A DNA stretch of 24,438 nucleotides from Desulfobacterales bacterium. GTDB taxonomy: Bacteria; Desulfobacterota; Desulfobacteria; Desulfobacterales; C00003060. The notes under the pieces are model-generated. The model saw nothing but the letters and a program-made list of their open reading frames with translations, was not told the origin of the DNA and searched no databases. This document shows positions 1 to 23,013 of the stretch, one piece after another. How positions within the stretch are numbered: the stretch's first letter is position 1; each line of letters starts with the position of its first letter. The position numbers and the translations under genes were made by a program. Location: NCBI GenBank assembly GCA_030668805.1, contig DAOVEU010000001.1, positions 1 to 24,438 of the forward strand, written 5' to 3'.

Positions 1-225
1 GGCCTCCAAATCTACATTGTGATCATTACGCCAGCGGGCCAATGGATAATCTTCGGCAAGAGGGGTACGATTCATATCAATATGGGTGCGAAGTACCCGC
101 CTTACGCCTGCTAGTGAAGCAGCCCGCACAGTGGCGATTACATCTGACATCCAGAGTTGAGCAGTTTGAACATCATTCGCAGGTGTATTGATGGATAGCT
201 CATTCAGCACCATGTCTAAGTCCAT
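1..225 (-). CDS. Partial (runs off left edge) hypothetical protein; third gene after DUF262 + ATPase/DUF3696, candidate Menshen NsnC-like effector
   Basis: Not in the ORF track. Manual translation from ATG 225 gives MDLDMVLNELSINTPANDVQTAQLWMSDVIATVRAASLAGVRRVLRTHIDMNRTPLAEDYPLARWRNDHNVDLEA, open to base 1. A GGAG RBS overlaps the upstream stop at 235. The NsnC assignment is from context only. Confidence 0.6.
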   Translation of the reverse strand, partial: MDLDMVLNELSINTPANDVQTAQLWMSDVIATVRAASLAGVRRVLRTHIDMNRTPLAEDYPLARWRNDHNVDLEA

Positions 226-234
226 ACAAAACTC

Positions 235-1356
235 CTACCCCTCCTTTGGTTCCAGCAAAGCTTCCAGAGACTTATCCCACACGTCAAAAAACCCGTCCGG
301 CCAGCGGTCAATTCTTCCGTTGCGATCAATTTTAGGTGATATGATAGAAATCTGACTCTGTTCTTCCTGCTCCAGGCGCTCAAAGAAATGGAGTTGCACT
401 TTGTCTGGCTCAATCTTTCCATTATAAACCCCAAGGCGAATACCGTTCAGCACATGATCACTGTGGGTCTCCACCACAACCTGTATTCCGCAACTCGCTG
501 CGAGGGCAACCAGTTCACCTATTTGAACTTGACCCATGGGGTGAAGATGTGCTTCGGGATTCTCAAACAGGAGCAAGGACCCGGGAGGTGAAGAAAGCAA
601 CGCAACGATTACGGGCAGAGTATAAGTTATTCCAAAACCTACATTGGTGCACCTGAATCTATTACTCACTTGCGTTCTGGTTTCAAAGGAATACAGGAGG
701 CTAACAAGATCCATCCCAGGATGTGAATCAATATGAATGCGAGTACCTGGACTTACAAGGCCCATCCACGCTTCGACTTGATCGCGGAGCTTGAGAGATT
801 CAGTACTAGGATGTGCAAGAAGTCTATGGTGTATATCTTCACTGCCAAATACTGAGAGAAAATGCTCTGTATATTCGCCCCGTGTGCCGAGTTGTCTGTG
901 CTGTCGAACGTGGAAATCGGACATTTGGAAGGATGTTCTTGGCCCCGTACGCTCCGCCTCAAGATAGTGAAAATTGTCATTGAAAAGGGAGGATTCAAAT
1001 ATTTCAGAGGATTCTGGGCCAACTGCGATATTCATCACGTCTGCTTTCTGGTCGTAATCAAAACGCCATTGTCCTTGCGTCCCTTCTTCCAAAACCACTT
1101 CAAAACCAATTATTTCCTCTTCTGCGTCTCCACAAAGGGCGTCATGTGCTGTACCAAGACGCACCAGATCCCCATTTAGGGCAAGGCCAGTGGACCGTAA
1201 TAACCCCATCCTAAAAGATTGACGCAACAGAATCAAAGCTTGCAGCAAAGAAGATTTTCCTGTTCCGTTGAGACCTGAAAGCAAAGTAAGCGGCCTCAAC
1301 TCGAACACTTGATCTCTGAAGCATTTGAAATTCTTTAGGTGTACTAACCGTATCAT
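235..1356 (-). CDS. ABC/AAA-type ATPase with C-terminal DUF3696-like domain (Menshen NsnB-like)
   Basis: Walker A GLNGTGKS, Walker B/D-loop FENPEAHLHP, H-loop VETHSDH, C-terminal IDRNGRIDRWPDGFFD typical of DUF3696. ATGA overlap with the DUF262 stop. Confidence 0.88.
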   Translation of the reverse strand: MIRLVHLKNFKCFRDQVFELRPLTLLSGLNGTGKSSLLQALILLRQSFRMGLLRSTGLALNGDLVRLGTAHDALCGDAEEEIIGFEVVLEEGTQGQWRFDYDQKADVMNIAVGPESSEIFESSLFNDNFHYLEAERTGPRTSFQMSDFHVRQHRQLGTRGEYTEHFLSVFGSEDIHHRLLAHPSTESLKLRDQVEAWMGLVSPGTRIHIDSHPGMDLVSLLYSFETRTQVSNRFRCTNVGFGITYTLPVIVALLSSPPGSLLLFENPEAHLHPMGQVQIGELVALAASCGIQVVVETHSDHVLNGIRLGVYNGKIEPDKVQLHFFERLEQEEQSQISIISPKIDRNGRIDRWPDGFFDVWDKSLEALLEPKEG

Positions 1357-2510
1357 GAGAGAACCTCCTTGAGCAGATGTTCGATGGCGGAAAATCTGAG
1401 ATTAACCCTGGCAATACTACCAGTACCCTGAGAGATGGCGCTTTCAAAATCACGGTCGTTCATGAGTTTAATGAATTCGTCAATCAAAGAATCCTTTCTT
1501 TTTTGCAACGTTGCAAGTTGTTTTTCATTTAGGAGATTAAGATTCACAGACCAAGCCTCAAACAATGCCTTGTTGATGGGGTATCTCCAACCATTTCTCT
1601 GATATAACTTGCGGAATGCATATCTTCCAAAAAGATTATATGCTGCGACCATCGAACGCAAGAATTGTCCTTTTAGATTCTCTATTTCGGGTTTAGGCAT
1701 TCTATTAATAGTTGCCATTGCCCTATTCAAAAAACTATCAAAATCCTTGCTCTTGTAATTAGTGTATGGAGAAATCGTGAATGCCATAAAACGAAGGACA
1801 CACTCCTGATCGGCCATTCTTTTGTCACGAATGCCATAATCCGTAGCCTTCTTAAATTCGCTTGAATTGGCTAAAACGGTAACCATTTCTGTCGCGCTGC
1901 CTTGATTGAGCGCATGCCTGATTTCTTGTGGTGATAACGGAAGTCCTCCAGTGTTAATTCTTTTGAAAATATTGAATTTGACCTCAGATGGCGTATCTCG
2001 TTCAATCAAGTAAACGGTAACTTGTGTTTCATTGATCCGTCGTTGAAAAGCTCTGGGCAATTCATCAAAGACCTTTCCTTCAATCTGATCAAGGAACTCT
2101 AAACCAGTGAGTTTGAGTCCTTTTTCGATCACAAATCTTTTGATTGTTGTTAATCTTTGTAGGCCATCTACAATCAACCACCTGTCTTCGTCAGTTGCAT
2201 CCATATAGAACGCTGGAAGCGGAATACGAATCAACATGGATTCGATCAAACGGCTTTGTACCGCATCACTCCATATTCCGGCCTTTCGCTGAAAGCCAGG
2301 CGTTAGATCCAGCTCTCCCTCCCTAATTCGTGCAATTATTAAATCCATAGACATTGGCCTAGTTTCCACCCTAATTAAAGTAGGATCAAATGGTTCTGTA
2401 ATTCTTTCGTCGCCTTCTGTATCCTCTGTCTCGACACCTGTGTGGTCAACGGCGCAAACGACTTCACTTTGATCAAGAAAGCTCCTTTTTGATTGTTCCG
2501 TATCTGTCAT
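1353..2510 (-). CDS. DUF262 (ParB-like/GmrS-type) domain protein (Menshen NsnA-like)
   Basis: DUF262 motifs PGFQRK..W, LIESMLIRIPLP, IVDGLQRLTT, FKRINTGG.PL. RBS AGAGGTG upstream of the ATG. Confidence 0.9.
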   Translation of the reverse strand: MTDTEQSKRSFLDQSEVVCAVDHTGVETEDTEGDERITEPFDPTLIRVETRPMSMDLIIARIREGELDLTPGFQRKAGIWSDAVQSRLIESMLIRIPLPAFYMDATDEDRWLIVDGLQRLTTIKRFVIEKGLKLTGLEFLDQIEGKVFDELPRAFQRRINETQVTVYLIERDTPSEVKFNIFKRINTGGLPLSPQEIRHALNQGSATEMVTVLANSSEFKKATDYGIRDKRMADQECVLRFMAFTISPYTNYKSKDFDSFLNRAMATINRMPKPEIENLKGQFLRSMVAAYNLFGRYAFRKLYQRNGWRYPINKALFEAWSVNLNLLNEKQLATLQKRKDSLIDEFIKLMNDRDFESAISQGTGSIARVNLRFSAIEHLLKEVLS

Positions 2511-2527
2511 TTTTTCACCTCTTTTTT

Positions 2528-5308
2528 CTAACTCTTCCCATTCGTTCTCGTAATTGCCTGATCATACCACATTAAGAGTTTGGGGTCTTCTTGGAGAACC
2601 TTTTCGGGAATTTTGCGAGCTACATCGATGATGATTTGGTAATTACGTTCCTGCCAGGCTTTCTTGAAACCGGCGCGCACGGCTTCGAGGCGGAACACCT
2701 TTAGGCGTTTTTGCTTTGATTCCAGGTATTCGTTGAACTCTCGCAATAGGGCCCGCTCACGCAGCTTTTCCAGGTCACTTGCTTTATTCGGATCAGGTAC
2801 GTACCATCGGTCCTTGGCTTTGGAGCGAAGGGCTGGGTCGTCCTTGGACAAGTTGCGCAGTTCCTTGAAGTTCGAGGACAGGTAGCTGTGGATCTGGCTT
2901 GGCACCTCGCCATTGCCATCGTAACGGAGGAAGTTCTGCTCCAGGAGCTCGGACAGCTCCAGCGCCTTTTCATGCTTCTGCCATCCGCCGATTTCTTTCA
3001 TAAACTGCGGGTGGATGTCCTGGAAGGTCTGCGGCTTCTTGGTGATCTGCTGTTTGAGCCACTGGATGGCCGACGCCTCGTCGGAAACAAAAAGCTGGAG
3101 TTGCAGGACTTCCTTAACGGTCATGCGTTTCTTGTCGTACTCGGCCGCCTGATCGGGTAGGAAATACATGCCGTCGCGTGGGGGGAAGCGTTGTTCCAAT
3201 CCAGCATAGAATTCAGAGGCGGACAAGGGAACCGTCACCCCGCGCTGAATGTGGAAAGCTACCATCCGGTCGAAGAGCAGGAAGTTCTGGCGTTCGGCGA
3301 TGACCTCGGCCTGGCCGTTCTTGGAGACGAATACCGGTAGCTGCTTCAAGTGCGTGCGGACGAAATCCCAGACGCCGCCTTCGGTTCCAGCTTCAATCTT
3401 GAAGCGTTCTTCAAGGCCATCGTTAGGTTTGTAGGCAGTAATAACCAAATCTTGCTTTACTGTATTTGCCAAAGTAAGTTGCTTCGTAGTTCCTTTTTTC
3501 TTGTCGAGAGTTCTAACATCAGCAACGATGAACCCGACCTCATTAATTGCTGTCTGAATAGCCGTCCAAATGGCATTTTGGGAATTATGAAATTCCACTG
3601 TCATCCATCTGCCCGGCTTTAGCATACGATAAACAGATCGCAACGAGTCTCTAATTCGATTTGCATACGCATCAACTGTAATCTCTCTGGTTTTGTTTAC
3701 TACCGCTTCTTCCTTATTTGAAGTGACAACTTTAAGCCAACTCTCAACAACAAAGCTCAACTCTGTGTACTGAAGATTCGCACCGAATGGAGGATCAACA
3801 AAGACGTAGTCCACAGAACTTGGTTGCCCGGAAAGACACTCTAAGCTACTCGCAGACTGAGTTGAAATAATGCTCTTTGTCATAGGTATCTTTGAAAGAT
3901 TTCTCAGCGCTGATATTCCTTTTCCGTTGATGTATTCAATGGGATTAATCTCAAGAGAAAAATACGGGACATAAAGAGTACCTGAAAGTGGTCCGACTAC
4001 CTCCCTCGACCTATTTCCCCGGTGCTGAGGCATATACCTATTCTGCCACGAGCATCTTTGAAGGATGCTTGTCAGCAATCCAAGGAGAGCAGGCTTCTCC
4101 GATCTTAGTTGTTTTGCTGCTGCAGCCAATACATGAAGCGTTCTTGCCGAAAAGAAGTGATGAACATGTGTTAATCCAGCCTCGTCATTACGCCTCGACT
4201 CATCCCCTTCTGGCATTCTACCTGTCGGGCACCAATGCTTGACTGGCCTACCTTCAGCTTTCTTGATGTTCAACAAATCTTCATTATCCGGACATTTCTC
4301 GAAACGCTTGCCTTGAAAATGATAAGACACAAGAACTGGTATACGTTTCACTCTCCGCAATGTTGTACCAAGCAAAGAATCATGAACTGTTTCGTACATT
4401 TTGTCGACAAGCTGGGCTCCGTATTTCTTTGCGTATTTGCGCTCATAGGCAAGATTTGAATCACAAGACGGACATTTGAATGATTTTGCACTAGTATTCT
4501 CATGAAGGTTGACGCACAGATCCCAAAGACTTGCTATGTGGCTGCATTGAGGACACGAGACAACAATAGACCATACTACATAACGTATCTGTCCGACCTG
4601 CGTGCTAATCTGTTTTCGCGTCTTCCAGCTCGCTGGAGCTTCAAGAGATGCGGGCCATCCAGTGTGTTTGGTGTAGTACCAATCTCCGAAGGAGTCGCGA
4701 AGTTCATCTACTAAAGATTCGAGAACGCGAGAGTCATTATTGCTGGGGCGAAAAAGGTTGTGGAAATAGGAAATAAAGCCCGCACTTGTACACAGATCAA
4801 CCAATAGTGTTGCAGCCGTGTTTTGTGAAGCAAGCGATGAACCAATGGCTGTCATGCCGCTTCCAGAGAAACAATCAAGTATCAGGCTACCCTCCGAAGT
4901 GTAATGCGACACATACTTTGCGATAGCCGAGGGCGGCACTTTAGTGTGATAAGTATGTATATAATAGCTTCTGTCTCCTTTTCCCTCACTCACATCTACC
5001 GCGAAGGGTTCCCGTCGATAGTCATCTGATACCGGGTCATACGGCTTTCCATACTGCTTAATAAAATCCTCAATGAAAGGATTCGGACAGGCCGTGTAAT
5101 ACGGCGGATCGGACAGCGCCAGGATGTCCTCGTCCTCGCCGATGGGGAAGCCCTCGATCTTGCGGAACTCCGGGTCCTTAAGCTTCTCACGCAGTTTCTC
5201 CAGGAAGTACTCCCGGCGTTTCTCGTCGTTCTCAAAGGTCATACCGAGGCATTCGACCGGTCCCTTGTCAGTTTTTTGCTGGTCTGTGAATAATGAATTC
5301 TGTTTCAT
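2528..5308 (-). CDS. pglXI: BREX type 3 amino-methyltransferase, PglXI-like
   Basis: Motif I DCFSGSGMT, motif IV VFVDPPF, and two CxxC (CPQC, CPSC) between them. N-terminus (GPVECLG.TFENDE.RR.YF...GFP.G.DEDILALSDPPYYTACPNP) and C-terminus (LREFxEY...RLEAVRAGF...LQEDPKLLMWYDQA) resemble BREX-3 MTases. Co-oriented with brxF/brxC. Confidence 0.85.
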   Translation of the reverse strand: MKQNSLFTDQQKTDKGPVECLGMTFENDEKRREYFLEKLREKLKDPEFRKIEGFPIGEDEDILALSDPPYYTACPNPFIEDFIKQYGKPYDPVSDDYRREPFAVDVSEGKGDRSYYIHTYHTKVPPSAIAKYVSHYTSEGSLILDCFSGSGMTAIGSSLASQNTAATLLVDLCTSAGFISYFHNLFRPSNNDSRVLESLVDELRDSFGDWYYTKHTGWPASLEAPASWKTRKQISTQVGQIRYVVWSIVVSCPQCSHIASLWDLCVNLHENTSAKSFKCPSCDSNLAYERKYAKKYGAQLVDKMYETVHDSLLGTTLRRVKRIPVLVSYHFQGKRFEKCPDNEDLLNIKKAEGRPVKHWCPTGRMPEGDESRRNDEAGLTHVHHFFSARTLHVLAAAAKQLRSEKPALLGLLTSILQRCSWQNRYMPQHRGNRSREVVGPLSGTLYVPYFSLEINPIEYINGKGISALRNLSKIPMTKSIISTQSASSLECLSGQPSSVDYVFVDPPFGANLQYTELSFVVESWLKVVTSNKEEAVVNKTREITVDAYANRIRDSLRSVYRMLKPGRWMTVEFHNSQNAIWTAIQTAINEVGFIVADVRTLDKKKGTTKQLTLANTVKQDLVITAYKPNDGLEERFKIEAGTEGGVWDFVRTHLKQLPVFVSKNGQAEVIAERQNFLLFDRMVAFHIQRGVTVPLSASEFYAGLEQRFPPRDGMYFLPDQAAEYDKKRMTVKEVLQLQLFVSDEASAIQWLKQQITKKPQTFQDIHPQFMKEIGGWQKHEKALELSELLEQNFLRYDGNGEVPSQIHSYLSSNFKELRNLSKDDPALRSKAKDRWYVPDPNKASDLEKLRERALLREFNEYLESKQKRLKVFRLEAVRAGFKKAWQERNYQIIIDVARKIPEKVLQEDPKLLMWYDQAITRTNGKS

Positions 5309-5312
5309 ATCA

Positions 5313-8300
5313 TCAAATTTCTACTCGCATCCACGGCCATGCTTGGTTATCCAACACTTTGGTTGCAAGGAAATTCTCAGCCATTGCCTTCTCATTTTGT
5401 TTGATGGAATTACGTAGCGTATCTGTGTTGTTATTAAGAAAATTAAGGCGACGATGAGTAGCATCACGGAAAAGCGCGGTTGACCGGAATTCATCCTGCC
5501 AAGTCCAAAACCGTCGGTCTGCGCATTTCAATAATAATCGAAACGCCGCCCAAGCATGGATATCATTTTCAACGATCAAAAATCGTTCAAACCAATATTT
5601 GGCCCAAGTATCGGTCTGCCAGTATGAGTAAGCCTTATCTGCAACTCGATCGAACCAGGTTTCCGCTTGGGGTTTGGTTTGCCGTGCCAACCATTCGCCC
5701 GTATTTTTGGCCGCCAGAAGTCCTCGAGTGATCAACGCACGAGACTGTTTAAACATCACTGCGGATTCCAAATCCTGTTCCACCCTGGATTCTAGCCACT
5801 TAAGCCCATTGCCTGCCTGGGCAACTATTACCAATTCCAAAAGATCTTGGTCTGTTTTGCATTGTTGTAAACATTGATCCCATGCGTGTATTACCTCTGG
5901 GACATCACGGGCGTTAAACAGTGCGTAGCGCAACACTGGAATACCTGTTCCCCTGACCACAAAATTAATCGCCGGATGCACCTCGCTCAGACGATGATAA
6001 AGATTCAGTCCTTTTGGTGGATCTATAGAAAGCAGCACCTGGCATAAAGATTCATAGAAACTGCGGCCTTTAATAAGGCGTTGTTTCGAAGATAGGTCAT
6101 CGTCAGTAATACCCGCCAGCCAGATATCGACGAGATCGGGGCGATATCGCACCACTATGTCAAGGGTGTGGATGCTGAAACATGTCGAAAACCAGATATT
6201 ACCAGCTTTGGTTTGTTGTTCGATCGTTTCCCGGATAATTTCTCCTAGGGTTTCCAACTGCTCATCACTTACGGGTTTAAATACATCTGCCAACGATTTC
6301 TGAGGACTGCCTCCAGGCATTCCGCCCCAAAAGGCATCACGGCTGATAAACTTGACCGATCTGGAAAACAGCGTGTCAGATAACCCGATCATATCAATGG
6401 GAATATCACGCGCAGTCAAATCGCATCTCACCTCCGCAGCAGGAAAGTCGGAAGGGATATCCGGCGTTGTTTCGACCAGTGTCTCCCATATACGCTGGAT
6501 GTCTTCAGAATATTGGTTGACTTCATCTTCGTTTCCGTTCCTTTGTGCCACGGCAAATCCTAAATACGAGGGATGCACCCGACAACGCAATTCGGTATAC
6601 GGCAAATTGCTACTGTATCTGGCCAACAGCAAGTTGCCCCAGTGGTTTTCCAGCTTGTGATGATCCGGCTCGCAGGCCCATTGGCCTTGGATGAACTCTC
6701 TGATATCCTTTTCGTTTCCCTGCTTATATAAAAGCTGCAGGACAAGGCTCCGGACAAGACCGTCTTTATGTCCCATTAATGAAACCACTTTGGACGTGAC
6801 GAATTCAGGGATATCCTGAGGATTTACGGACAGAAACCATAGAATGCGGCGAATATCGCAAGCGTCCCCCTCTGCCAATCTTTTATTGACGTCCTGCCAG
6901 TCTCCAGGGGCCTTGAAGAAATGCTCAAATGAAATAAGGTCTGCCGCAGCCGGTGGCCTTATGAGAAGATATGTCAGTTGCTGCTCTGAATCTGCATCCT
7001 GTAAAACTATGTGAAAAAGAAATTTCTCGGTCAGATGTTCATCTTTGCTACCTGTTTCAAGTTGCTCTACTATGCGGCGCCACGCTGCTTGTAGGCATTT
7101 TTTCGCTTCATCGTCCAATATCAGCTCGTGTTTGGTTATCTGTAAGGCCAATTGTCGGAGGGCTATTCCCCTTCGGCTATCAACCGTTTTGGCAATTGAA
7201 CGATAAATTTTCGCAGCAGCATCAGGCGCATATGCACACAACGCAGGTTCAATCTCTTTGAGAAAATCATCTTCTGCGGTCTGATAGATACCCGACCATA
7301 TCTTTTCCACTGGAATTTGATCAGCTAAGGGTGCAAGGATGGCGCCCAGATTAGGGGCAACGGGGAGTTTTGGATCACGGCAAAACGATTGAATTTTACG
7401 TGCAATCCAGGACGGAGCCATATTTTTCCGTTTGAGACAAAGCTCCAATTCTGTCCGGCTCCAAGTAAACACTGAGTTGCAGGGATCTTTTTGATGCATT
7501 TCCAACAACGGGTGGGGTGGAAATAGATTTTCCGGAAGTTTCTTCTGCATTTGGGCTGCATGCTCACTGCCTTCAAAGGAAAGAAGACGGTATGCTGCTT
7601 GTTTGCTTGCAATATGGTCGTGATCCAGTAGAGTCTTGGCGTGCCCTTCGATTTCCGGCCAAAGTGGTTCCGGCGACGAATGTACTACCCAGCCGAACAG
7701 CTCGTACTTGTCAGGAAAATCCATAATCGCCTCGGCTAAACACCCGATAGCAATGGCCCGGAGATAGGGTTTACGCGGAAGATGTGAAATGACAGCAAGT
7801 GCCGCCCGGCCGAGCCGCAACAGACCGTCGTCCATAATAACCGTCAGCCGATAACCGGCAAATTCCATTGGCCCTGGTAAAAGTTCCTGTTCTGCTCGCT
7901 CGGCAATCTTTCTTCTTACCTTCTCAACTTCCTCAGGCTTGTTTTCACGACGCTGGAACGGATGCCCATCAGGATGAATAAGTCCCAGCCAACGCTCAAA
8001 TATCTCGGGAAGTATAGATTGCACAGATGGAGAATTTCTCCAGTGCAGTAAGGATCGCATGAGCAGATCCTGGCCCCATGGATTGTCGTGAATATCAGAC
8101 CATATGACTTCCGCCAATTTTAAATAGGCAACGGGATGGATAGGCAGATAGGCGCTAAAATTTTCATCAGCTTTTTCTTGCAGGTTCTTGCTCTCAAGCC
8201 AAGCCTGCAGTAAGGCCACTTGACAAGGTTCAGGGAAATTATTCTTAAGTGATAGGGCGTGGAGTGCCGCTGATTCTAATATCGCAGCCTTGATATCCAT

Positions 8301-10013
8301 CTCCTGATGAGGTTCCAACCAATTGGCAATGGTTTCATCAAGGCTGGGACCATGATCCAAAACCGCCTGCTCGACTTGGTCCGCTAGCAGAAGACCAAAA
8401 CCTAGGATCAGGCGACGTTTGTCCACCCGGTAAGAACCGGGTTGACCATGCAAGATACCGCCACTCACTAAATCATCGAGCACAGCTTGTCTGTCATTGA
8501 TGAGCGGCAATTGATTAGCGACATCCCTTTCAGAGATTTGATTGCCGCCTTGGCATGCTTTGTCAGCAAATCCTTTTATTATGCCCTGAAATGCCTGATC
8601 ATCAATGGGAAGATTGGTTTTTCGTGACCAGCGATCACGCCAGTCCTCATATATAAGCCTGGCTACTGTAGGATCGCCGCTCTCGGCCATTCGTTGTCTA
8701 TGTTTTACAACCAGGTCAAGATAGCGTGGTTTGCAAATCAACGGCAGCACGCTATCAGCGATATCCGACCGGGCCAAGTGATGTCGCCGAAGAGCGATGT
8801 CCAACTCAGTATCGTCATACGGTGGGAGCGTGGTGGAGCGCACGTTGAGGTGCCGAAGTATCGAAAAGTAGCGTTTCCAATAACCCGTACGGACCGTAAT
8901 TAAAACGGCTATTTGCTCCAGCCAGGGCGAATTCATAAGCCCTTCAATGAGTTCCCGCCACCATTGAGGAGTGCGGCGTTCATTGATGCCGTCCAGTACC
9001 AGAAGAGCAACTGGTGAATCTCCAACAGGGCGTTGCGCCCATCGCTCTAAACGCTTTTCCCAATATGTATGATGCTGTTTGCCTATCTGTCGAGCAATGG
9101 CTTCAGATAACAGAGATGCCGGCCCATTTGATCTTGGATGAGAAGAGGAAAGAAAAATTACAGGCGGAAAATTTTCAGTGTTCTGTATTTGCCAATTAAG
9201 CCATGACGCAACAGCCCATGTTTTGCCATCCCCTTCATCCCCCAAAAGCACAAAGTGGGATTGTGTCTTTGACCAGGAAGATAACCAGTCGTCCAATTCC
9301 TGCCACGCTGTGCTGCGTTTGACCAAGTCGACTTCTTTTGAGGCGACATGAAGTACCTGTCCAAAGGCGCTTCGGCTCGCATTTTCTGTGCAGAAACGTT
9401 GCCTTAACCACTGATTCTGTTCAGCACGCCAATGCTCATAGCCTATATTTGCGGCTGTAAAACTGTTTTTAAGCCGTTCTATGACGGTCGTAAAATTTGA
9501 GTTCTTTGCGATATTCTCCAATTCAATCTGGACCCGCTGTCTCTCTGGCTCAGACGAGATGGAAGCGAGGTGGTCCATAACTATCTGCGCACCATAAGCA
9601 CAGAGGCATTCCAAAGAACTAGGTGAACCATCTCCGGCTGAGATGGCGCGAAATTCTACACCTAGTTGGACCGCCTGTTTATCAAGTAACGTCAATAGTT
9701 GATCAGGAATATCCCTGCTGGCAATCAATACCCAGAGATCTAAATCAGGTATGTCAATGTGGGCTTGCACCAATTCGGCCAATAATTCCCGTTCGTTAAG
9801 TTCAGTTTCTTTGCCATAACGCTTACACTCCACCGCAATGATACTTCCTCCATGGCGGTCAGAACTCATGTCACGACCGGATTGGCTGCCGGAGCGAGCA
9901 AGATGAAAAGATCTACCAGTCAGGTTTTCCAACAGACCGGCAATCAAACCTTCAAAGCCGCCCTTTCCAGAGTGATAAATTCTACGCAACTCTTCAATAA
10001 GACTATGATTCAT
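5313..10013 (-). CDS. Large PD-(D/E)xK (Mrr-like) endonuclease - STAND/NACHT-like NTPase - helical-repeat protein (Avs/NLR-like antiviral protein)
   Basis: N-terminal GFEGL...SGRD...AVECKRY nuclease signature, Walker A GDEGDGKT, Walker B LLVLDGINE, sensor ITVR, LPPYDDTE and CKPRYL NACHT-like motifs, then about 1000 aa of predicted helical sequence. Confidence 0.8.
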   Translation of the reverse strand: MNHSLIEELRRIYHSGKGGFEGLIAGLLENLTGRSFHLARSGSQSGRDMSSDRHGGSIIAVECKRYGKETELNERELLAELVQAHIDIPDLDLWVLIASRDIPDQLLTLLDKQAVQLGVEFRAISAGDGSPSSLECLCAYGAQIVMDHLASISSEPERQRVQIELENIAKNSNFTTVIERLKNSFTAANIGYEHWRAEQNQWLRQRFCTENASRSAFGQVLHVASKEVDLVKRSTAWQELDDWLSSWSKTQSHFVLLGDEGDGKTWAVASWLNWQIQNTENFPPVIFLSSSHPRSNGPASLLSEAIARQIGKQHHTYWEKRLERWAQRPVGDSPVALLVLDGINERRTPQWWRELIEGLMNSPWLEQIAVLITVRTGYWKRYFSILRHLNVRSTTLPPYDDTELDIALRRHHLARSDIADSVLPLICKPRYLDLVVKHRQRMAESGDPTVARLIYEDWRDRWSRKTNLPIDDQAFQGIIKGFADKACQGGNQISERDVANQLPLINDRQAVLDDLVSGGILHGQPGSYRVDKRRLILGFGLLLADQVEQAVLDHGPSLDETIANWLEPHQEMDIKAAILESAALHALSLKNNFPEPCQVALLQAWLESKNLQEKADENFSAYLPIHPVAYLKLAEVIWSDIHDNPWGQDLLMRSLLHWRNSPSVQSILPEIFERWLGLIHPDGHPFQRRENKPEEVEKVRRKIAERAEQELLPGPMEFAGYRLTVIMDDGLLRLGRAALAVISHLPRKPYLRAIAIGCLAEAIMDFPDKYELFGWVVHSSPEPLWPEIEGHAKTLLDHDHIASKQAAYRLLSFEGSEHAAQMQKKLPENLFPPHPLLEMHQKDPCNSVFTWSRTELELCLKRKNMAPSWIARKIQSFCRDPKLPVAPNLGAILAPLADQIPVEKIWSGIYQTAEDDFLKEIEPALCAYAPDAAAKIYRSIAKTVDSRRGIALRQLALQITKHELILDDEAKKCLQAAWRRIVEQLETGSKDEHLTEKFLFHIVLQDADSEQQLTYLLIRPPAAADLISFEHFFKAPGDWQDVNKRLAEGDACDIRRILWFLSVNPQDIPEFVTSKVVSLMGHKDGLVRSLVLQLLYKQGNEKDIREFIQGQWACEPDHHKLENHWGNLLLARYSSNLPYTELRCRVHPSYLGFAVAQRNGNEDEVNQYSEDIQRIWETLVETTPDIPSDFPAAEVRCDLTARDIPIDMIGLSDTLFSRSVKFISRDAFWGGMPGGSPQKSLADVFKPVSDEQLETLGEIIRETIEQQTKAGNIWFSTCFSIHTLDIVVRYRPDLVDIWLAGITDDDLSSKQRLIKGRSFYESLCQVLLSIDPPKGLNLYHRLSEVHPAINFVVRGTGIPVLRYALFNARDVPEVIHAWDQCLQQCKTDQDLLELVIVAQAGNGLKWLESRVEQDLESAVMFKQSRALITRGLLAAKNTGEWLARQTKPQAETWFDRVADKAYSYWQTDTWAKYWFERFLIVENDIHAWAAFRLLLKCADRRFWTWQDEFRSTALFRDATHRRLNFLNNNTDTLRNSIKQNEKAMAENFLATKVLDNQAWPWMRVEI

Positions 10014-10099
10014 TGGCTGTGCGAGATAAAGCGTTATTAGACCGAATTCTAAGCCTCAAACAAATCGCCTTTTCGACGCGTAAGAGTATTTGTGCAAAT

Positions 10100-10272
10100 T
10101 GCTAATGTTTCTACGCATTAAATCCAGCATTAAATAGGCGTATTGCTGCTATCAATGCTCGTGAGCATTTGAGTCGAACTTTCATTATGATTAATGGACA
10201 TAAAACGGCTTTGCATCATTTATTGTTGCATTTTTCTCCATAAATGGCTTCAAAAATGGCATTTATCATGGC
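10100..10272. repeat. Degenerate repeat block A: 16-bp palindrome and 12-bp-period doublets
   Basis: AATGCTC-GT-GAGCATT perfect palindrome at 10154-10169; GCATTAAAT x2 (10115, 10127); AAATGGC x2 (10242, 10254). Confidence 0.65.
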
Positions 10273-10403
10273 GTGGCGAGTCTGATCGCGCAGACCGAAG
10301 TCACGAGCAAAGTCGCTATCGCGGTCACAGCACAAATGGTCTTCGTCAGTAACCCGGCCTTTTGCCAAGCCTCTATGTCTTTGAATCTTTCAATCCTCGC
10401 AAC
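10271..10403 (-). pseudogene. 5' remnant of a four-helix-bundle (23S rRNA IVP / Avd-like) gene, frameshifted
   Basis: Translates as VARIERFKDIEAWQKAGLLTKTICAVT, then after a 1-nt shift near 10321 as DSDFARDFGLRDQTRHA. This matches the family pattern F.D..AWQKA..L...I...T....F..D..L.DQ.R.A. No intact start, and the 3' two-thirds are absent. Confidence 0.65.
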
Positions 10404-10554
10404 TCGAAGCTACTACCTGCCTATAGCCAAATGCTCGCAGATTGCCCGCGATCAATTGCCCGCGGGATTCCGGTGTGCAACTTTCTATATGCGATTCTAC
10501 ATGAGTTCATATAGCTGGTCACATAATGGGAGCGCTTATGCGAACTCCAATCCG

Positions 10555-10720
10555 ACCGAGCATTAGAACCGGTTAAATGCTCGCTTTAATGCTCGTGAGC
10601 AATTTTCCGAGCAATTCTTTGTAGAATTGCTCCAATAGTTGCCGGTAGAAATGCCCATAAAATGGCACATTCCATTTTGGTGAGCCATTTTTGCGTATAA
10701 ATGGCTCATGAAATGGCGCA
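10555..10720. repeat. Degenerate repeat block B, diverged direct copy of block A
   Basis: AATGCTCGTGAGCAAT at 10588-10603; CGAGCATT/AATGCTCG inverted pair at 10557-10583; 10-bp inverted repeat TGAGCCATTT/AAATGGCTCA at 10681-10708; ATAAATGGCT-N4-AAATGGC at 10697-10717 (also at 10240-10260). Confidence 0.65.
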
Positions 10721-10729
10721 AATCCATTT

Positions 10730-11002
10730 CTATCCATTTCCGTCACCCAAATATACCCATCGCGATCCTCTTCCTTTACCCTGAAGCATCACAGCGCCTT
10801 CATGCTGTAATTCCGCCATGAGGCGCTTCACCTGCCCGCGGTCAAAATGGGTAATCTGCCGGATTTCCTGGTTAGACAGGCCTTGGTCGCCCCGATTCTC
10901 TCGCTGTTTGAGCACACTCAGCACCCGGGTCTTGGCCTCTTCCCAGTCGATGCGCCTATCCCGGTCCGAGTGGCCCGGTCCAAGAAGTCTTGCGAGGTAA
11001 CC
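10730..11002 (-). pseudogene. 3' remnant encoding a C-terminal winged-HTH (as in AlbA/RecG-C-type ATP-binding regulators)
   Basis: The frame is open from the codon right after the DUF4276 stop: GYLARLLGPGHSDRDRRIDWEEAKTRVLSVLKQRENRGDQGLSNQEIRQITHFDRGQVKRLMAELQHEGAVMLQGKGRGSRWVY. It has a wHTH with a G.GRG wing and no start codon for the first 26 codons. Confidence 0.55.
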
Positions 11003-11626
11003 TTATTCTTCCCTGCCTTCTATCTCACGAGTCAGCGTCTCGAACAGTCTTTCACAATGTGGCGCTTTGGACCGAACGATTTGGGAGTCGATAAGGCAAA
11101 GCAACTTTGACCCGTGCCGGATCTTGTGGTAGGGGCCTTTGCGACTGTCACGCGTAGCATTCTGCAGAGCCGTTTCAAGTACCGCTTTGTCAATTGCTTC
11201 GACTTCGTCCCTCGCCGGGATCACCCCACGCCTGAATCCATTGCCATAAAACGATTCCAGTATGTCGATGTCAGCTACTAACCATGCCTCCATCATCTGA
11301 ACCATCAAATGGCAATGTTCGTCCAAAACACCAGCAGGATTCCATCCATCTCTCTCCTGAAGATGGCGCCACGCGGTTTGGTTCACTGGCCCTTCGGCAT
11401 CAACAAGCAAAACATTGAAAGCATCTGGATGGCTTCTCAAGGCCATTTTGAAGTTGTCAAAAGCCGCATTCCGCGGACCGCAGGCGATGATATTCCAGCG
11501 GATTCGACGTTCCCGGGCAAGACCGCGGAGCTGGCTCAGGAATTGTCCAAGACCCCGGCGAATAGCGGCCTTAGTATCTTTGCCGTCTCCCCCGCCCTCA
11601 GCATATATACGGATCTCATTTACCAC
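11003..11626 (-). CDS. DUF4276-family (TOPRIM-like) protein
   Basis: IYAEGGGD TOPRIM-type glutamate motif, LLVDAE, MVQMMEAWLVAD, YHKIRHG. Probable start is GTG 11626 (AGGAGG 6 nt upstream, overlapping the ATPase stop) rather than 11656. Confidence 0.8.
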   Translation of the reverse strand: MVNEIRIYAEGGGDGKDTKAAIRRGLGQFLSQLRGLARERRIRWNIIACGPRNAAFDNFKMALRSHPDAFNVLLVDAEGPVNQTAWRHLQERDGWNPAGVLDEHCHLMVQMMEAWLVADIDILESFYGNGFRRGVIPARDEVEAIDKAVLETALQNATRDSRKGPYHKIRHGSKLLCLIDSQIVRSKAPHCERLFETLTREIEGREE

Positions 11627-12894
11627 CGGGTCCCTCCTATTTCCCCCATGCGCCACAGTTCTCCCAAGGAATACTTATCCAACCATTCCTTGAGCTGGTC
11701 CTTTTTTAAACGTCTTAAGTGAGTCCCTGTATCATCGCGTTCGCACACAAGCACACTTTCCGGAGTATCTGAGAGAGCCGATACAAGAATATCGGAATGG
11801 GTTGTAACGATCAACTGTGTCTTGTCCGATGCCTCAATAAGTAACTCAGCGATAGTTGGGAGGATATCAGGATGCAGCCCTAGTTCTGGTTCCTCAATGC
11901 ACAATACTGAAGGAGGTGCTGGATGGCAAAGCAGTGTCAACAAACACAAGTACCGAAGGGTGCCGTCTGACAGGCGTGTGGCTGGAATGGGCTGGGTCAG
12001 CCCCTTTTGGTGCAGGAAAATCTGTACGGTTCCACCGTGTATCCTGGTAGTAATATCCTCTATGCCCTCGTCAAAGATCTTCAGTTTTTCGATAATTAAC
12101 CTTTTTGTTCCCGGCTGGTGCTGCAAATCATTTAGTACCAGGCCAAGATTGCTGGCATCTTCTATAAGAAAATCTTCAGGAAGGTCTGCTTTTTGGGGAA
12201 GTCGCGGCGGTGTATAACGCCCCAAATTCCACTCCCGGTATAATTCAATCCTTGAGAATTCATTGGCCAGATATGTGAGTTCAGGGTATTGGTCCGGGTC
12301 TTTTCGTTGGGACAGCACCGACTGGTGAATATCCAGATCTTCCCTTCGAAGTGACCGAACCATGCGCTTTTGCCCCGTCGCTCTAGGAAAGGCTTTAGCA
12401 TAATGGCTGAGAGATTCTTGGACAGTACGGGTCTCCTTTACATCAGGGGGGGTGATTATGGCATTCAAAACAGGATTGCCACAATTATAACGATAGAAAA
12501 AATAAACATCTTCTTCATCAGGCTTTGTCGGACGCTCGCACTCAACAGCCTCATCCACCAGCTCAAACCGTTGCCCGACCTTAGTAAAACTGAGCCGGTA
12601 CCTAAGGGGAATAGGTTCATCGGGGTAATTCAACGTTACATTGATTTCAGCTACTGGGGTACCCTTCTTTCCTTTGTAAAGCCACTCGGTCACACCTCCG
12701 CCTTCACGGATTGGGGCAGTCAGATCCCTCGGTGTAGCTTGCAGAAGAGCAAAGGCCTCTATTAGATTGGACTTACCCGAACAGTTCGGTCCGATCAGTA
12801 CGTTCAACGACTCCAATTCTATTTCGGCAGTGTCTTCCCCGTAAGAGAGGAAATTTGTTAGCTGAATGGTTCTGATAAACTTATGCTCTGTCAT
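11620..12894 (-). CDS. ABC-type (AAA_21-like) ATPase
   Basis: Walker A GPNCSGKS, signature LSDGTLR, Walker B IEEPELGLHP, H-loop VTTHS. ATG 12894 has GGGAG 6 nt upstream, directly after the brxC stop. Confidence 0.9.
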   Translation of the reverse strand: MTEHKFIRTIQLTNFLSYGEDTAEIELESLNVLIGPNCSGKSNLIEAFALLQATPRDLTAPIREGGGVTEWLYKGKKGTPVAEINVTLNYPDEPIPLRYRLSFTKVGQRFELVDEAVECERPTKPDEEDVYFFYRYNCGNPVLNAIITPPDVKETRTVQESLSHYAKAFPRATGQKRMVRSLRREDLDIHQSVLSQRKDPDQYPELTYLANEFSRIELYREWNLGRYTPPRLPQKADLPEDFLIEDASNLGLVLNDLQHQPGTKRLIIEKLKIFDEGIEDITTRIHGGTVQIFLHQKGLTQPIPATRLSDGTLRYLCLLTLLCHPAPPSVLCIEEPELGLHPDILPTIAELLIEASDKTQLIVTTHSDILVSALSDTPESVLVCERDDTGTHLRRLKKDQLKEWLDKYSLGELWRMGEIGGTRW

Positions 12895-12904
12895 TATATT
12901 CTCC

Positions 12905-15900
12905 CTATTCCAGCACAATCCTGACCTTGCTCGGATCTTTGCCTTTTGTGAGATCAGCCAAATATTCGTCGAAGCGCTTCTTCAATTCATCCGGTGTTGC
13001 CGGGGCACCACCTCTTAGCAGCGCGGATCTCAGGTCTTCAATCCTTACCTCTACTTTTACCAGGCCTGAGAGCACTTCCCGCACAGCATGGATGAAATCA
13101 TGTCCAAGGTCTTCCGGAAGGGTCTGAGTTTTGATGAAGGCTTTCAAATGCTTTCTGTCTTTGGCTTTAAGCAAGCCCAAGTCTTTTTGGATTGTGGGGT
13201 CCTCAAGGTTTGTGAGGAGTGTCCGAGTCCACGAGGAAAGAAGATTGTCCAGTTGATCGTCCATTTGGTGGAGAAGGGTGGCCGCCGCCACCTTAGACTT
13301 TTCAGCGCCAGGTTTATAAGAACAGTGCGGGCAAACAGGCGAGTCTTTTAGATCTGGCTCCGTCAACTGGTAGCAGGGTGTGAGGTCTGCGAGGCGGTTC
13401 AGAAAATCAATCAGATGGGCACTTGGCATCACATCGATGACAGAGATCTCTTGAAGGATTTTTAGGCGTTCGTCATGCATAAGCTGGGTCTTCTTCTTGT
13501 CATCAGTAATCCCCAGCCGAGCCTTCGCATGAAGAGACATGTATTCCTTCACATAGGCTTTCTTGAGATCGACGAGCTTACGCATGACCTGCTGGCGGAA
13601 AGTTGCAGCTTTCCGCTTATCAGCGTCCATGATCTGAGATAGAACCTGATCCCTTGTTTTCTTCGCTTTCCCGGTCCACGCGTGTTCACCAGGCATTACA
13701 GCTTCGGCAGTAGAGAGGTAGGAGGAAATAGGCCCGACCTCATCCGCCATGCCTTTTAGGGACTCAACCACTTGAAGCGTATTAAGGCCTTCCCGATGTG
13801 ATTTCACATCTTTGGCTGTATACCGGAAGTTCTTGAGCTTGCCAGGAGTCGAATAGGCCTGGAGAGATTCCAGAAATGTCTTTGTTTGCTCCAAGCGGGC
13901 CAGCAAATTCTCTGCCTCCTCTTCGGTAAGCAGGCTCTGGCCCCAGATGGGGAATCGGCCGTGCACATACTGCTGCGATAGAACCAATTTCTCTACAGAC
14001 TGGGCGACGGCCTGCTGAAGCTGTTGGACCGGCTCCTCTTTTCCCAGGGTGACGTTGCTGGCAAGCCCTGGCGCAAGGCCCATAAGTTCAAACAGAGCCT
14101 TAAGGGCTGGGAGATTCCATTCCTTGGGTCGTTCGATGTGTTTGAAGCTGGCCAGGTCATCAACAGCCGTAGCGCAAAAAACAGAAAGGCTTGTAGCATC
14201 GAATTTCTTCCCTGGAATGGCAAGAACCAAATCACCCGAGTACACCAAGCTCGCTAGAACGACCACAACCCACTCCGGCTCAAGCCTGTAAATGTTCGGA
14301 GCCAAGTATTCGACCCCATACGCATCCTGGATGATTTCAGATCGGTTAACTACCTGGCCTTCGCCCTTTTTGCCCAGAAGATCCAGAATATGTTTTGCAT
14401 AGCTGGAATTCTGCGGAGCGAGTCTTTCACCGTCCAGCAACTCCAAAGCGTCGAGCACTGCTGTGGCCTGCTTTGTTCGGGTGGCACCTGCAATCCATCG
14501 AAGGGAATCCTGGGCTGCCTGCATTCGGTTTTCTCTGGTGACCAGCACCGAAAAGTGAGGATATTCCGGCGATAGATCAGCAAAGTGTGTCTCCAGACAA
14601 ATGCCAGCCATTGCATTGATAAGATCTCGGAAATTGATGCGCTCATGAGATGGAACCCCTGCCAGGTCGCGGATATTCTTGTCCTTTGCCCATTCCACAA
14701 GGGATTTCTTTCTTCCCTGATAGGTAATCTGGAATGCTGAGCTCATGTGCTCTTTGAGCCACCTGACCAGCTTGCGGAGAAAATCTTCCTCCGCCTTGGA
14801 TTCGTACACGCTCTTAGCATGCCCGGAGGATGTGGAAGCCAGGTCAAGGGCCGCAGCATATTTGTTCAGCGTGTCATTGAAATCATCGTCCGCTCCGGTG
14901 AGGCGGAGAAATACTTCGTCGGCCTTCTTTTCATCTTTAAAACGCGGGGGATCATGGGGTTGAACGAAGTACAAGTAAAAGTCCCGAGGTGGCACGGCTG
15001 TGGAGCGTTCGTTAGGAGAACCGAAGAAGAGGTAACCCTGACGGGCGGCCTTATGCGTATACCACTCCAGCTCATGTTCCCAGATTTTGTAGCCGGTGAT
15101 ATAGGTCTGATCTGTGCACTCCATGAGCCTTTTCAGCCCCTCGTAGTAGTAGCGATCAAGTTGTTCACTATCCAGGCTGTCTGCTCGTTTTTCGATAATG
15201 GCGTCAAAGTCTTCAGTCTTCTTGAGATCCAGATAATACTGGCGATTATCCGGATTTGAGGAAATGAACTGTCCGCTCACCGTTTTGTGGATTTCCCGGA
15301 GTACGGTTTCCACCTGGGAAACGAGATCCTCTGCCGGCTCGCCGCCCAAGTCCTCTATGCCAGGCTGGTATAGACAAAGGGTGTCACGCAGTTCTTCTGC
15401 GGTGGCTCCCAGAGGGGCGTGAATGTCACCGGTAGTAAGCCGATGGACTGACAAAGCATTAATGATTCGTAGAGCCATGGGCTTGTAGGCCGGTCGGGTA
15501 AAAGCTTGGTTGATACGGGATTCCAGGACCTGGCCACAGTCGATCACTGCTTTAATATCCGGCACAGCTCGGAAAGATGGGTTCTCACGCAATGTGTCCC
15601 AATAGCTATCATAGGCGATGAGCCCCGGCTGGTCTTCAGGAACATCCTTTTCCAGCAGGCGTTTCATGGCAAAGGATAATGTCTTGAGTATTTCGCGCTT
15701 CTCGACAGCGGTAACACGTTCAAAGGTATCGATATAGTCCGGATGAACCGGAAACAGGCGGACAAACTCGTCCGTCCGCTCATTCATATCTCCGTAGAAC
15801 TTGGCAAAGGAAGTGAGGTGCTCTCTTATTCTGGCCTGTTGTTCAATGGTCTTCTTAAGGAGACGTTCAGCGACGACAAACTTAACGTCTCTTCGTGCAA

Positions 15901-16636
15901 TGAGGATCTGCTGAAAGCGATCCTTAACGCGACGAAGGCTATCAGCAACGAATGAAAACCTGGGGCTGTCAAAAATGGCTTCTTGTACACCAGCGATGAA
16001 TCGAAAACGAATGTCCTTACAAACCTCACCAATTTCTCTGAGGAAATTCAGGTCCAGGATAAGTTCCTGGTCTTTCCGAGTGCGCAGATAGTCGAGAAGT
16101 TCATCTACGACAAGGAGTAAGCCACGGTCCGGGAACGTCTTGTGAAATGTTGCCATCATTTCTTCAAAGGCCGGTTTATTACTGGACACCTCACTCGCAG
16201 ACGGGAAGGTATAATCTATTTCCCACGAGCCTAAACGCTCCTCCAGAGCAGCCAATACAATGTCCCGCAGAGACATAGTCGTTGAGCCAATCTCAGTACG
16301 GATTACTTTGAACTTCCCCGCTATTTCTTTCGCAGCCTTTGAAACCCGGTCGCTGATAATAATGTCTGCAAAGTCGGCGTTCTCTGCGGCTGCTGAGATC
16401 AGGGACATCAAGTGAGATTTGCCGGTACCATAATTGCCTACGACCAAGAGCCCCTTATTGTCGGTTGGATAATCGACTTGTAGGTGTGTGAAAACAAGTT
16501 CGGTGAGCTTTTCCGCCATTTCATCTGAGATCACGTACGTTGAAACAAGTTGCCGCGCGGAGTCCTCATGATCAGCATCACGGAGTTGAACCACGGATTC
16601 GATGGGCTCAAATTGGATAAGTTCCTTGTATTTCAT
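12905..16636 (-). CDS. brxC: BREX type 3 large P-loop ATPase BrxC (DUF6079-like)
   Basis: Walker A GNYGTGKS, Walker [11 protein letters not shown]-terminus [19 protein letters not shown]-terminal C..CPHC and [10 protein letters not shown]. About 1243 aa, directly after brxF. Start is ATG 16636 (track uses TTG 16642). Confidence 0.85.
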
Positions 16637-16684
16637 CTCCAAAACCCTTCCATGCTAACGTTATCAATTTGGACGTCACATCTC

Positions 16685-17152
16685 TCATTCCGGTGTCACC
16701 ACCTGAAGGTCGCGGCAAGGGTAGCGGCGATATTCGGGATGTTCGGGAGCGGCATAGACCATGTAATTGTCCTTAATTTCTCCGTTCCAGGTGGCAACAA
16801 TTGTTCTATTTCGGGAAAGCCCTTGAAGGAGCCTCAACGGATCTTGTTTAAGAGACTTTTCAAACAGAATCTCAATGTTGTCCAGGAGTACCACATCACT
16901 CCGGTTCTGTCTCAAGATGTCCTCCAAAAGCCGGGATGCCTGAAGTGCGCGCTGCCGAGTCGTCAGTTCCAACATGCGTCGGGAGATCTCAAGATTCACA
17001 TTGATAAGGGGTGCCCCCAGACCCTGCCGCACTTCTTTGAGGGCTGATGTCTTCCCAAAGCCCGATGGAGCGACAACAAGAACGAGCCTGTGATATAGTT
17101 CAGGGGCTTGCTTGATCTTCCCGATTATTTGGTTAGAAAGGGGCTCTACCAT
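16685..17152 (-). CDS. brxF: BREX-3 small P-loop protein BrxF
   Basis: 155 aa with APSGFGKT, VLLDNIEILF...L.QDPLRLL and HPEYRRY. AAGGA RBS. First gene of the operon. Confidence 0.85.
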   Translation of the reverse strand: MVEPLSNQIIGKIKQAPELYHRLVLVVAPSGFGKTSALKEVRQGLGAPLINVNLEISRRMLELTTRQRALQASRLLEDILRQNRSDVVLLDNIEILFEKSLKQDPLRLLQGLSRNRTIVATWNGEIKDNYMVYAAPEHPEYRRYPCRDLQVVTPE

Positions 17153-18526: not shown

Positions 18527-18536
18527 GTCTCAGTAC

Positions 18537-19387: not shown

Positions 19388-19435
19388 CCTCTCGGTGAGC
19401 GGATGGGCTTGGTTGACTGATCATCTGGGCTCATA

Positions 19436-23001: not shown

Positions 23002-23013
23002 AAAAGGAAAAAT

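Follow-up and report, generated by a model that had tools for sequence, protein, structure and literature searches.

The 24,438-nt stretch of DNA analyzed here (hereafter the window) is an entire contig (C11; DAOVEU010000001.1 of assembly GCA_030668805.1) and the longest in the 419-contig, 67%-complete metagenome-assembled genome (MAG) of a Desulfobacterales bacterium. It carries a type 3 bacteriophage exclusion (BREX) locus, and we consider it likely, judging from gene content and comparison with related loci, that this is a BREX operon on a mobile tRNA-Leu island in which three autonomous defense modules have piled into two recombination-prone junctions. The cargo between brxC and pglXI would comprise an HEC-01 pair and an Avs4-like Mrr-nuclease/NACHT protein, and that after pglXI would be Menshen (nsnABC). 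Because the closest relatives of the NACHT and HEC-01 genes also occur outside BREX, they appear to be autonomous passengers rather than parts tailored to BREX; mechanistically, the passengers are probably independent hitch-hikers and not components of the BREX system itself.

Gene content and organization of the locus

Genes were called from an open reading frame (ORF) listing together with three libraries of hidden Markov models (PADLOC, Pfam, and NCBIfam), and all of the named genes, namely brxF, brxC, the HEC-01 pair, the NACHT gene, pglXI, nsnA, nsnB, and the start of nsnC, lay on the minus strand. The three BREX genes were in the canonical order, matched their profiles over the full length, and had intact motifs. 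Specifically, brxF (16685-17152; 155 aa), encoding a BREX-3 P-loop/iSTAND protein, matched PADLOC BrxF at 5.9e-71 (profile positions 1-154 of 158) and NCBIfam BREX_3_BrxF at 198.6 bits against a cut-off of 50. The ATPase gene brxC (12905-16642; 1245 aa) matched PADLOC BrxC (PDLC02482) across profile positions 1-1231 of 1231 and Pfam DUF6079 at 1826 bits, with the Walker A motif GNYGTGKS at residue 69, and the methyltransferase gene pglXI (2528-5308; 926 aa) matched PADLOC PglXI at 1241 bits, with DPPY at residue 67 and DPPF at residue 505.

The first cargo module consisted of HEC-01A (11620-12894), an ABC-type ATPase (AAA_21) with the Walker A motif GPNCSGKS that matched PADLOC HEC-01A (PDLC04177) at 1e-184 over profile positions 3-393 of 393, and HEC-01B (11003-11626), a TOPRIM-like DUF4276 protein (PADLOC HEC-01B, PDLC04201, 8.3e-76, profile positions 3-200 of 202; Pfam DUF4276, 2.5e-22). 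HEC-01A starts with an ATG at 12894, 10 nt past the brxC stop and preceded by a GGGAG motif, and the likely start of HEC-01B is a GTG at 11626, which overlaps the HEC-01A stop by 7 nt. The second module was a single gene (5313-10013; 1566 aa) encoding an Mrr-like nuclease, a NACHT STAND NTPase (Pfam NACHT at 32.3 bits, cut-off 26.7; Walker A GDEGDGKT), and a C-terminal region of ~950 aa. The third, Menshen, comprised nsnA (1353-2510; 385 aa; DUF262/GmrSD_N; PADLOC NsnA, 2.5e-147; Pfam GmrSD_N, 2e-21), nsnB (235-1356; 373 aa; ABC ATPase with DUF3696; PADLOC NsnB, 2.5e-120; Pfam AAA_15 and DUF3696), and the first 75 codons of nsnC (1-225; PADLOC NsnC, 5.3e-17), which is interrupted by the end of the contig. 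Walker A motifs were thus present in BrxC, HEC-01A, and the NACHT protein, and also in NsnB. These matches bore out the gene identities and strand proposed earlier by a model that had seen only the letters and their ORFs (the sequence-only reading), as well as its view of the locus as a type 3 BREX backbone with extra modules at two junctions; what it had called simply a third gene beside the DUF262 and DUF3696 genes is the start of nsnC.

From brxF onward, the junctions measured 42 bp (brxF/brxC), 10 bp (brxC/HEC-01A), a 7-bp overlap (HEC-01A/HEC-01B), 989 bp (HEC-01B/NACHT), 4 bp (NACHT/pglXI), 17 bp (pglXI/nsnA), a 4-bp overlap (nsnA/nsnB), and 9 bp (nsnB/nsnC). Seven of the eight therefore lay between an overlap of 7 bp and a gap of 42 bp, in agreement with the overlaps or gaps of 4-48 bp described in the sequence-only reading, with the 989-bp HEC-01B/NACHT spacer as the exception to that description. 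Co-transcription of the passengers with BREX is plausible because of the tight junctions, the lack of terminator-like sites on the minus strand in any junction, and the placement of the pglXI start 4 nt past the NACHT stop; given the shared orientation and tight spacing, the passengers would probably be read from BREX transcripts. A promoter and terminator scan of the window returned counts no higher than those of shuffled sequence, and the only RNA-labeled runs (X8 and X17), which were flagged as probably DNA and had short, shallow contigs, contributed no transcript evidence.

Occupancy of the two junctions in related loci

We surveyed 80 loci encoding PglXI relatives (44-73% identity) with flanks of up to 10 kb, clustering their ORFs by BLAST and naming clusters via PADLOC and Pfam, on the basis of crude gene calling; a junction was counted as occupied when the core genes were at least 200 bp apart. 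The brxC|pglXI junction was occupied in 43 of 62 loci, and that between pglXI and the next core gene (brxHII or pglZ) in 48 of 61; among 50 loci, 28 had cargo in both junctions and only five in neither. The two insertion slots postulated in the sequence-only reading are therefore real and recurrent. Cargo was nearly always co-oriented with BREX, including all 56 genes in the brxC|pglXI junction and 103 of 117 in the junction after pglXI.

The commonest occupant of the brxC|pglXI slot was a gene with Schlafen/AlbA_2, HATPase_c_4, and wHTH domains (c6; domain make-up from Pfam), found there in 22 loci and as the sole occupant in 17, and the commonest cargo after pglXI was DUF3696-ATPase modules related to NsnB (nine loci by clustering). 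HEC-01-like pairs were seen in the other slot, after pglXI, in two loci (L071 and L076). At 7,596 bp, the brxC|pglXI slot of the window exceeded the largest of the 62 surveyed (4,861 bp), and with a second slot of 3,313 bp the total cargo of the window came to ~10.9 kb, where the survey reached at most 8.1 kb. Larger slots are censored by the 10-kb flanks, and two loci (L049 and L050) may exceed these maxima. The window is thus an extreme case of a very common arrangement.

Remnants of earlier cargo in the 989-bp spacer

The spacer between HEC-01B and the NACHT gene consists, by tblastn matches, of two dead gene fragments left from earlier cargo. Positions 10736-10990 (minus strand) showed 56-68% identity to residues 488-572 of five full-length c6 proteins (E-values down to 1.6e-27), corresponding to a 3′ stub with the last ~80 codons of the Schlafen-type gene. 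Positions 10255-10403 (minus strand) matched residues 1-50 of seven proteins of a four-helix-bundle family (u10; Pfam PF05635, 23S_rRNA_IVP, 1.2e-38) in two frames, that is, a frameshifted 5′ stub.

One surveyed locus (L025) has the order c6 stub, intact four-helix-bundle gene, pglXI, which we propose to reflect the ancestral one. The ancestral arrangement would then have been brxC, Schlafen gene, four-helix-bundle gene, pglXI, with HEC-01 having replaced the 5′ part of the Schlafen gene and the NACHT gene the 3′ part of the four-helix-bundle gene. Two such overwriting events would leave the two stubs that make up the spacer, and this two-step overwriting is the simplest, and the likely, history of the region. 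The four-helix-bundle stub was also retained upstream of the NACHT homolog in two other loci (L097 and L098). A 124-aa ORF upstream of the NACHT homolog in L091 was considered as a further candidate and rejected, being unrelated to the spacer stub.

An Avs4-like nuclease-NACHT family

The NACHT passenger is one of a family of ~1560-aa proteins, for which at least 294 homologs were counted. Mrr_cat matched the N-terminus of 18 of 20 family members, with the window copy scoring 17.4 bits, under the cut-off of 21, and the residues D48, E62-x-K64, and D92 were invariant. An AlphaFold2 model of residues 1-620 (predicted local distance difference test score, pLDDT, 85.3) had as its best fold match EcAvs4 in complex with phage portal (8DGF, E-value 1.6e-11), in an alignment spanning both the nuclease and STAND modules, followed by CED-4, Dark, NLRC4, NLRP3, and NOD2. 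The protein has the architecture of Avs and bacterial NLR-like proteins, with an N-terminal effector, a central STAND NTPase with a Walker A motif, and a long C-terminal region of putative sensor role. Like EcAvs4, an Mrr-like nuclease-STAND-sensor protein that binds phage portal, it has the nuclease before the STAND module (~630 aligned columns) and a total length of ~1540-1570 aa; unlike EcAvs4, with which it shares only 14% identity, its NTPase scores as Pfam NACHT and its C-terminal ~950 aa are uncharacterized. On the strength of the structural model, the protein probably works like an Avs/NLR-type sensor-nuclease.

Comparison of the protein with PADLOC and NCBIfam models, including those for Avs, gave no family match, the 90 families of PMC13581612 being outside this comparison, and searches of PDB sequences with the protein and with an N-terminal profile returned nothing useful. 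Among 400 genomes of the phylum only two distant matches were found. One homolog (P0116) carries TIR domains (PF01582 and PF13676), and if TIR replaces the Mrr-like N-terminus in that protein, it would be a case of the effector exchange for which Avs/NLR-like proteins are typical.

NACHT relatives outside BREX, standing alone or in a type I restriction-modification (RM) locus, were 67-80% identical to the window copy. The closest of these (P0002; 80%) lay within a type I RM locus after hsdS, and three others (L091, L095, and L099) were alone among housekeeping or unrelated genes. The protein matters as a member of an uncatalogued and widespread Avs4-like nuclease-NACHT family, found nested in a type I RM locus as well as in BREX-3.

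The HEC-01 and Menshen passengers

The first module has the composition of HEC-01, namely an ABC ATPase followed by a TOPRIM-like DUF4276 protein; in the published description of HEC-01, the TOPRIM-like partner of the ABC ATPase retains the metal-binding site (Payne et al., 10.1101/2024.01.29.577857). It resembles PARIS (AriA ABC ATPase with AriB, a DUF4435 TOPRIM protein) in being a two-gene pair of the type found embedded in BREX loci, but the partner is DUF4276 rather than DUF4435 and the ATPase scored much better as HEC-01A than as AriA (1e-184 vs. 2e-36), such that the pair is not PARIS. HEC-01 was found in eight of 401 genomes in a sample of the phylum. In one complete genome (G264; L116:9280-11245), the pair is flanked by thiC on one side and a type I-B CRISPR-Cas locus on the other, with a brxC stub of 54 codons, from the 3′ end of that gene, ahead of it. 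A full BREX-3 locus is found 262 kb from the pair in this genome, and the 3′ end of its brxC is only 85% identical to the stub.

The third module is Menshen, a system named as validated in defense (10.1101/2024.01.29.577857), with NsnA, NsnB, and the NsnC fragment matched within one operon, of which nsnC is represented by only 75 codons in the window. NsnA had a GmrSD_N (DUF262) domain and no other Pfam domain. A comparable case is BrxU, a GmrSD-family protein in the type 1 BREX locus of pEFER, for which a complementary role is proposed; both are DUF262-containing defense proteins nested in BREX, but BrxU consists of one GmrSD-like protein and its host locus is type 1, whereas NsnA belongs to a three-gene system in a type 3 locus.

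By analogy with characterized systems, PglXI would methylate host DNA, and unmethylated phage DNA would be blocked. The NACHT protein may sense a phage protein via its C-terminal region, oligomerize, and switch on its nuclease, as Avs proteins do, HEC-01 may pair an ATPase sensor with a nuclease effector, and Menshen would act independently.

Core-gene fragments beside exported cargo and mosaic core genes

Several NACHT relatives outside intact BREX loci carried pieces of pglXI. In L097 (76% identity), a four-helix-bundle stub is followed by the NACHT gene, a 4-bp gap, the first ~217 codons of pglXI (L097:5311-5913), and then a Schlafen-type gene, in a lineage only 81% identical to the window at the DNA level. 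In L093 and L098 (70-72%), ~150 bp of the pglXI 5′ end (L093:9750-9891 and L098:8054-8191) directly follow the NACHT stop, before unrelated genes; none of these fragments was beside an intact pglXI. Because these NACHT relatives, and the HEC-01 pair of G264, still carry pglXI or brxC fragments, the sequences suggest that pieces of core genes accompany cargo as it moves from locus to locus.

Contigs of other strains in the same samples matched the ends of pglXI and brxC at 90% identity or more and skipped their middles, with joints at 2592>5184, 13098>16700, and 13207>17003, so both core genes appear to be mosaics with conserved ends, in agreement with a separate earlier note on pglXI. A weak observation, from 90%-identity contig mapping, is that other-strain contigs share the brxC 3′ end and HEC-01A but skip the body of brxC.

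We propose that cargo enters and leaves by recombination anchored on the ends of brxC, pglXI, and brxHII. Such anchoring would produce one clean and one ragged junction per insertion, as is seen in the window, where every insertion abuts a core gene cleanly on one side and breaks raggedly into an older passenger gene on the other. It would also account for the pglXI 3′ stub in two contigs of a sister haplotype (L081 and L087, see below) and for the fused stubs of the brxHII 5′ and pglXI 3′ ends in L014, L029, and L040. A broader version, in which BREX-3 junctions are exchange hubs and the core-gene pieces act as homology arms that anchor one-sided insertion into the next BREX locus, is put forward only tentatively, as we would lean slightly against it. 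Scars of this kind, namely stubs of displaced cargo and core-gene fragments on exported cargo, could reveal how embedded defenses are gained, replaced, and spread.

The fused ORFs themselves are small (L014:14429-14689, L029:14589-14873, and L040:5959-6253), join a 5′ fragment of brxHII to a 3′ fragment of pglXI, and sit in the slot after pglXI, upstream of more cargo. They look like the junction of a tandem duplication or circular intermediate across the pglXI/brxHII boundary.

The downstream half of the BREX operon

Since the contig ends inside nsnC, brxHII, pglZ, and brxA lie outside the window, and a search of the 67%-complete MAG for DNA downstream of the window found nothing. An exact-match look-up of the window PglXI returned no record. 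A look-up of the exact NsnB protein, by contrast, identified six contigs from cold-seep and marine-sediment assemblies that were 98.2-99.05% identical to window positions 1-2742. In these, to the extent that their lengths allow, nsnC (317 aa) is followed by full-length brxHII (954 aa), pglZ (671 aa), and brxA (264 aa), with profile positions 2-931 of 933 covered for brxHII and 1-663 of 666 for pglZ, and with the full nsnC scoring 2.7e-93 to PADLOC NsnC. Apparent breaks in pglZ (L085) and brxHII (L086) were rejected as gene damage, being scaffold gaps (runs of N). In the best DNA run, a zero-mismatch 3.6-kb contig covers window positions 1-2816 and extends 833 bp past the left end. It is thus very probable, by comparison with these contigs, that the canonical downstream half follows nsnC in this strain. 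The leftward extension for these genes called for in the sequence-only reading hence found them intact directly after nsnC in near-identical contigs, but not in the MAG itself.

Relative to the canonical type 3 BREX (brxF-brxC-pglXI-brxHII-pglZ-brxA), the window has the first three genes at full length and in order and near-identical contigs supply the rest; it differs in the passenger DNA lodged in two junctions and in having the last three core genes off its contig. Across the survey, brxHII was absent from 16 of 61 type 3 loci (including L003, L016, L022, L030, L042, L051, L063, and L071), which corresponds to a presence close to the 77% given in PMC12839542. Two of these (L003 and L042) retain a short brxHII 3′ stub, and the helicase was therefore deleted rather than originally lacking.

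Weighing of the alternatives

Several observations weigh against reading the window as a working BREX operon with autonomous cargo. No PglZ or BrxA family matches were found elsewhere in the MAG, which carries little weight in a genome only 67% complete; nevertheless, with the contig stopping in nsnC and the MAG incomplete, the completeness of BREX is deduced from the near-identical contigs. In the sister haplotype among those contigs (L081/L087), homology to the window ends within the pglXI 3′ end and only the last ~75-150 codons of pglXI remain, and because pglXI is there a 3′ stub, the downstream block does not always accompany an intact pglXI. Sequencing depth in the best DNA run was ~51x over 1-2816, ~90x over 3056-11090, and ~180-210x over 11401-13200, and these steps, near 2.8-3.0 kb and 11.4-13.2 kb, reveal strain mixtures. 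Finally, HEC-01 in E. coli gave no protection against the phage panel of Payne et al. in the only published test (10.1101/2024.01.29.577857).

These mixtures raise the possibility that the contig is an assembly chimera joining modules of different co-existing strains, with the three-module stack present in no single cell, and the several other-strain contigs that skip most of brxC or pglXI, as well as a contig end that coincides exactly with the point of haplotype divergence, would fit such a view. Yet the zero-mismatch 3.6-kb contig, from the same run, crosses pglXI/nsnA to 2816, past position 2742, where homology to the other haplotype ends, further zero-mismatch pieces span 3056-8969 (NACHT/pglXI) and 9810-11090 (NACHT start, spacer, and HEC-01B 3′ end), and ORFs across the joins are all intact, with full-length alignment to their families, making a chimera the least probable of the explanations considered. 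Only slightly less improbable is a decaying remnant, in which BREX no longer works and its neighbors are merely adjacent genes of a defense-island mosaic. Two pseudogene stubs inside the locus, the truncations of pglXI in the sister haplotype and in L097, and the failure to find pglZ and brxA in the MAG are in keeping with decay, but no truncation is seen in brxF, brxC, or pglXI, whose Walker A and DPPY/DPPF motifs are intact, the downstream genes are full length against their profiles in all of the near-identical contigs, and the stubs derive from displaced cargo rather than from core genes.

In a functionally layered system, as favored in the sequence-only reading, the passengers would be wired to BREX: inactivation of BREX by a phage inhibitor would trigger HEC-01, the NACHT protein and Menshen would serve as back-ups, and a single transcript would control them all. 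In favor of this view are the tight same-strand packing, the near-universal co-orientation of cargo, the 4-bp NACHT/pglXI junction kept in L097 despite its divergence, and precedents in PrrC-EcoprrI and BrxU-BREX; moreover, a guard function for OLD-ABC/TOPRIM modules in BREX has been proposed in print (10.1101/2024.01.29.577857; PMC12839542). We nonetheless regard it as unlikely. The inhibitor-guard role assigned to the ABC-ATPase/DUF4276 pair rests on analogy to PARIS, whereas the pair is HEC-01 and not AriAB, its B component being DUF4276 and its AriA score far under that for HEC-01A, and the negative outcome of the sole published test of HEC-01 also speaks against that role. The same passenger families occur without BREX and in either slot, and the dead-gene spacer lies midway through the supposed single transcript. 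The reading as an operon with autonomous passengers, set out at the start, is accordingly the one that we retain.

Relation to published embedded defenses

Defense genes embedded in BREX have been described by Payne et al. 2024 (10.1101/2024.01.29.577857) under the term 'guilt-by-embedding', with 96.7% co-orientation, a 'genomic sink', and ideas of guarding, back-up, and co-regulation, and OLD-ABC/TOPRIM, GmrSD, Schlafen-kinase-wHTH, and other 'back-up' effectors have been reported within BREX loci, including type 3 (PMC12839542, NAR 2026). The window conforms to the pattern of Payne et al. in that all passengers are on the minus strand, either between brxC and pglXI or after pglXI before brxHII. 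It shares with the published cases (10.1101/2024.01.29.577857; PMC12839542) same-strand cargo between core genes, OLD-type ABC and TOPRIM-like pairs, GmrSD/DUF262 proteins, and Schlafen-HATPase-wHTH genes. It differs in stacking three modules in one type 3 locus, with a 7.6-kb brxC|pglXI slot, and in its STAND/NACHT passenger, which is absent from the nuclease classes listed in PMC12839542. A term search of the Payne preprint (10.1101/2024.01.29.577857) for cargo with core-gene stubs, recombination, and remnants did not find them.

The locus is therefore a crowded example of the embedded-defense pattern already in print rather than a system of a new kind; its slots, although real, have likewise been published, and the concepts of embedding, back-up, and co-regulation are not new. 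What is notable is the combination of three stacked modules, a STAND passenger of an uncatalogued family, and clear scars of turnover. As such, the locus is a natural construct with which to probe whether nested modules, including HEC-01, act independently, in synergy, or as guards.

The island end, the sister haplotype, and flanking genes

A tyrosine integrase gene (19967-21388, plus strand; Pfam Phage_integrase and Arm-DNA-bind_2) abuts a tRNA-Leu(GAG) gene (21394-21480, minus strand; ARAGORN and Rfam tRNA), and the locus would therefore be on an island integrated at that tRNA, of which the integrase/tRNA-Leu pair is likely the right-hand end. A search of L081 downstream of brxA for an att repeat (copy of the tRNA-Leu end) found none, and an Rfam scan of the window returned only the tRNA.

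The sister haplotype (L081:1-8829 and L087:1-14236) is 98% identical to the window over nsnABC. Upstream of its pglXI stub are ZacC, a 2770-aa TmtA-like SACS-domain protein, a DrmD-like SNF2 helicase, and a 173-aa gene, and after brxA there is a PDC-S01 (AAA_14/DUF4143) gene. No brxHII 5′ stub was found beside the pglXI stub in L087. A short repeat after brxA in L081 recurs on six other contigs of the MAG and is different from that upstream of brxF in the window, where 17296-17520 holds elements of 65-72 bp that recur on three other MAG contigs (C344, C348, and C356). Depth spikes fivefold in the latter region, where the metagenomes also have numerous loose contig ends, so that it resembles a short interspersed repeat.

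No small HTH regulator of the BrxR type or mad1-like was present upstream of brxF (17441-19741), a position in which 12 of the 80 surveyed loci have one. The interval from brxF to the integrase contains uncharacterized plus-strand genes, including a sigma-70 region-2-like gene. Just past the tRNA, 22951-23754 encodes a 267-aa protein with NYN and OST-HTH/LOTUS domains that matched no PADLOC model and that has the NYN domain in common with the MARF1-like PADLOC candidate HEC-09.

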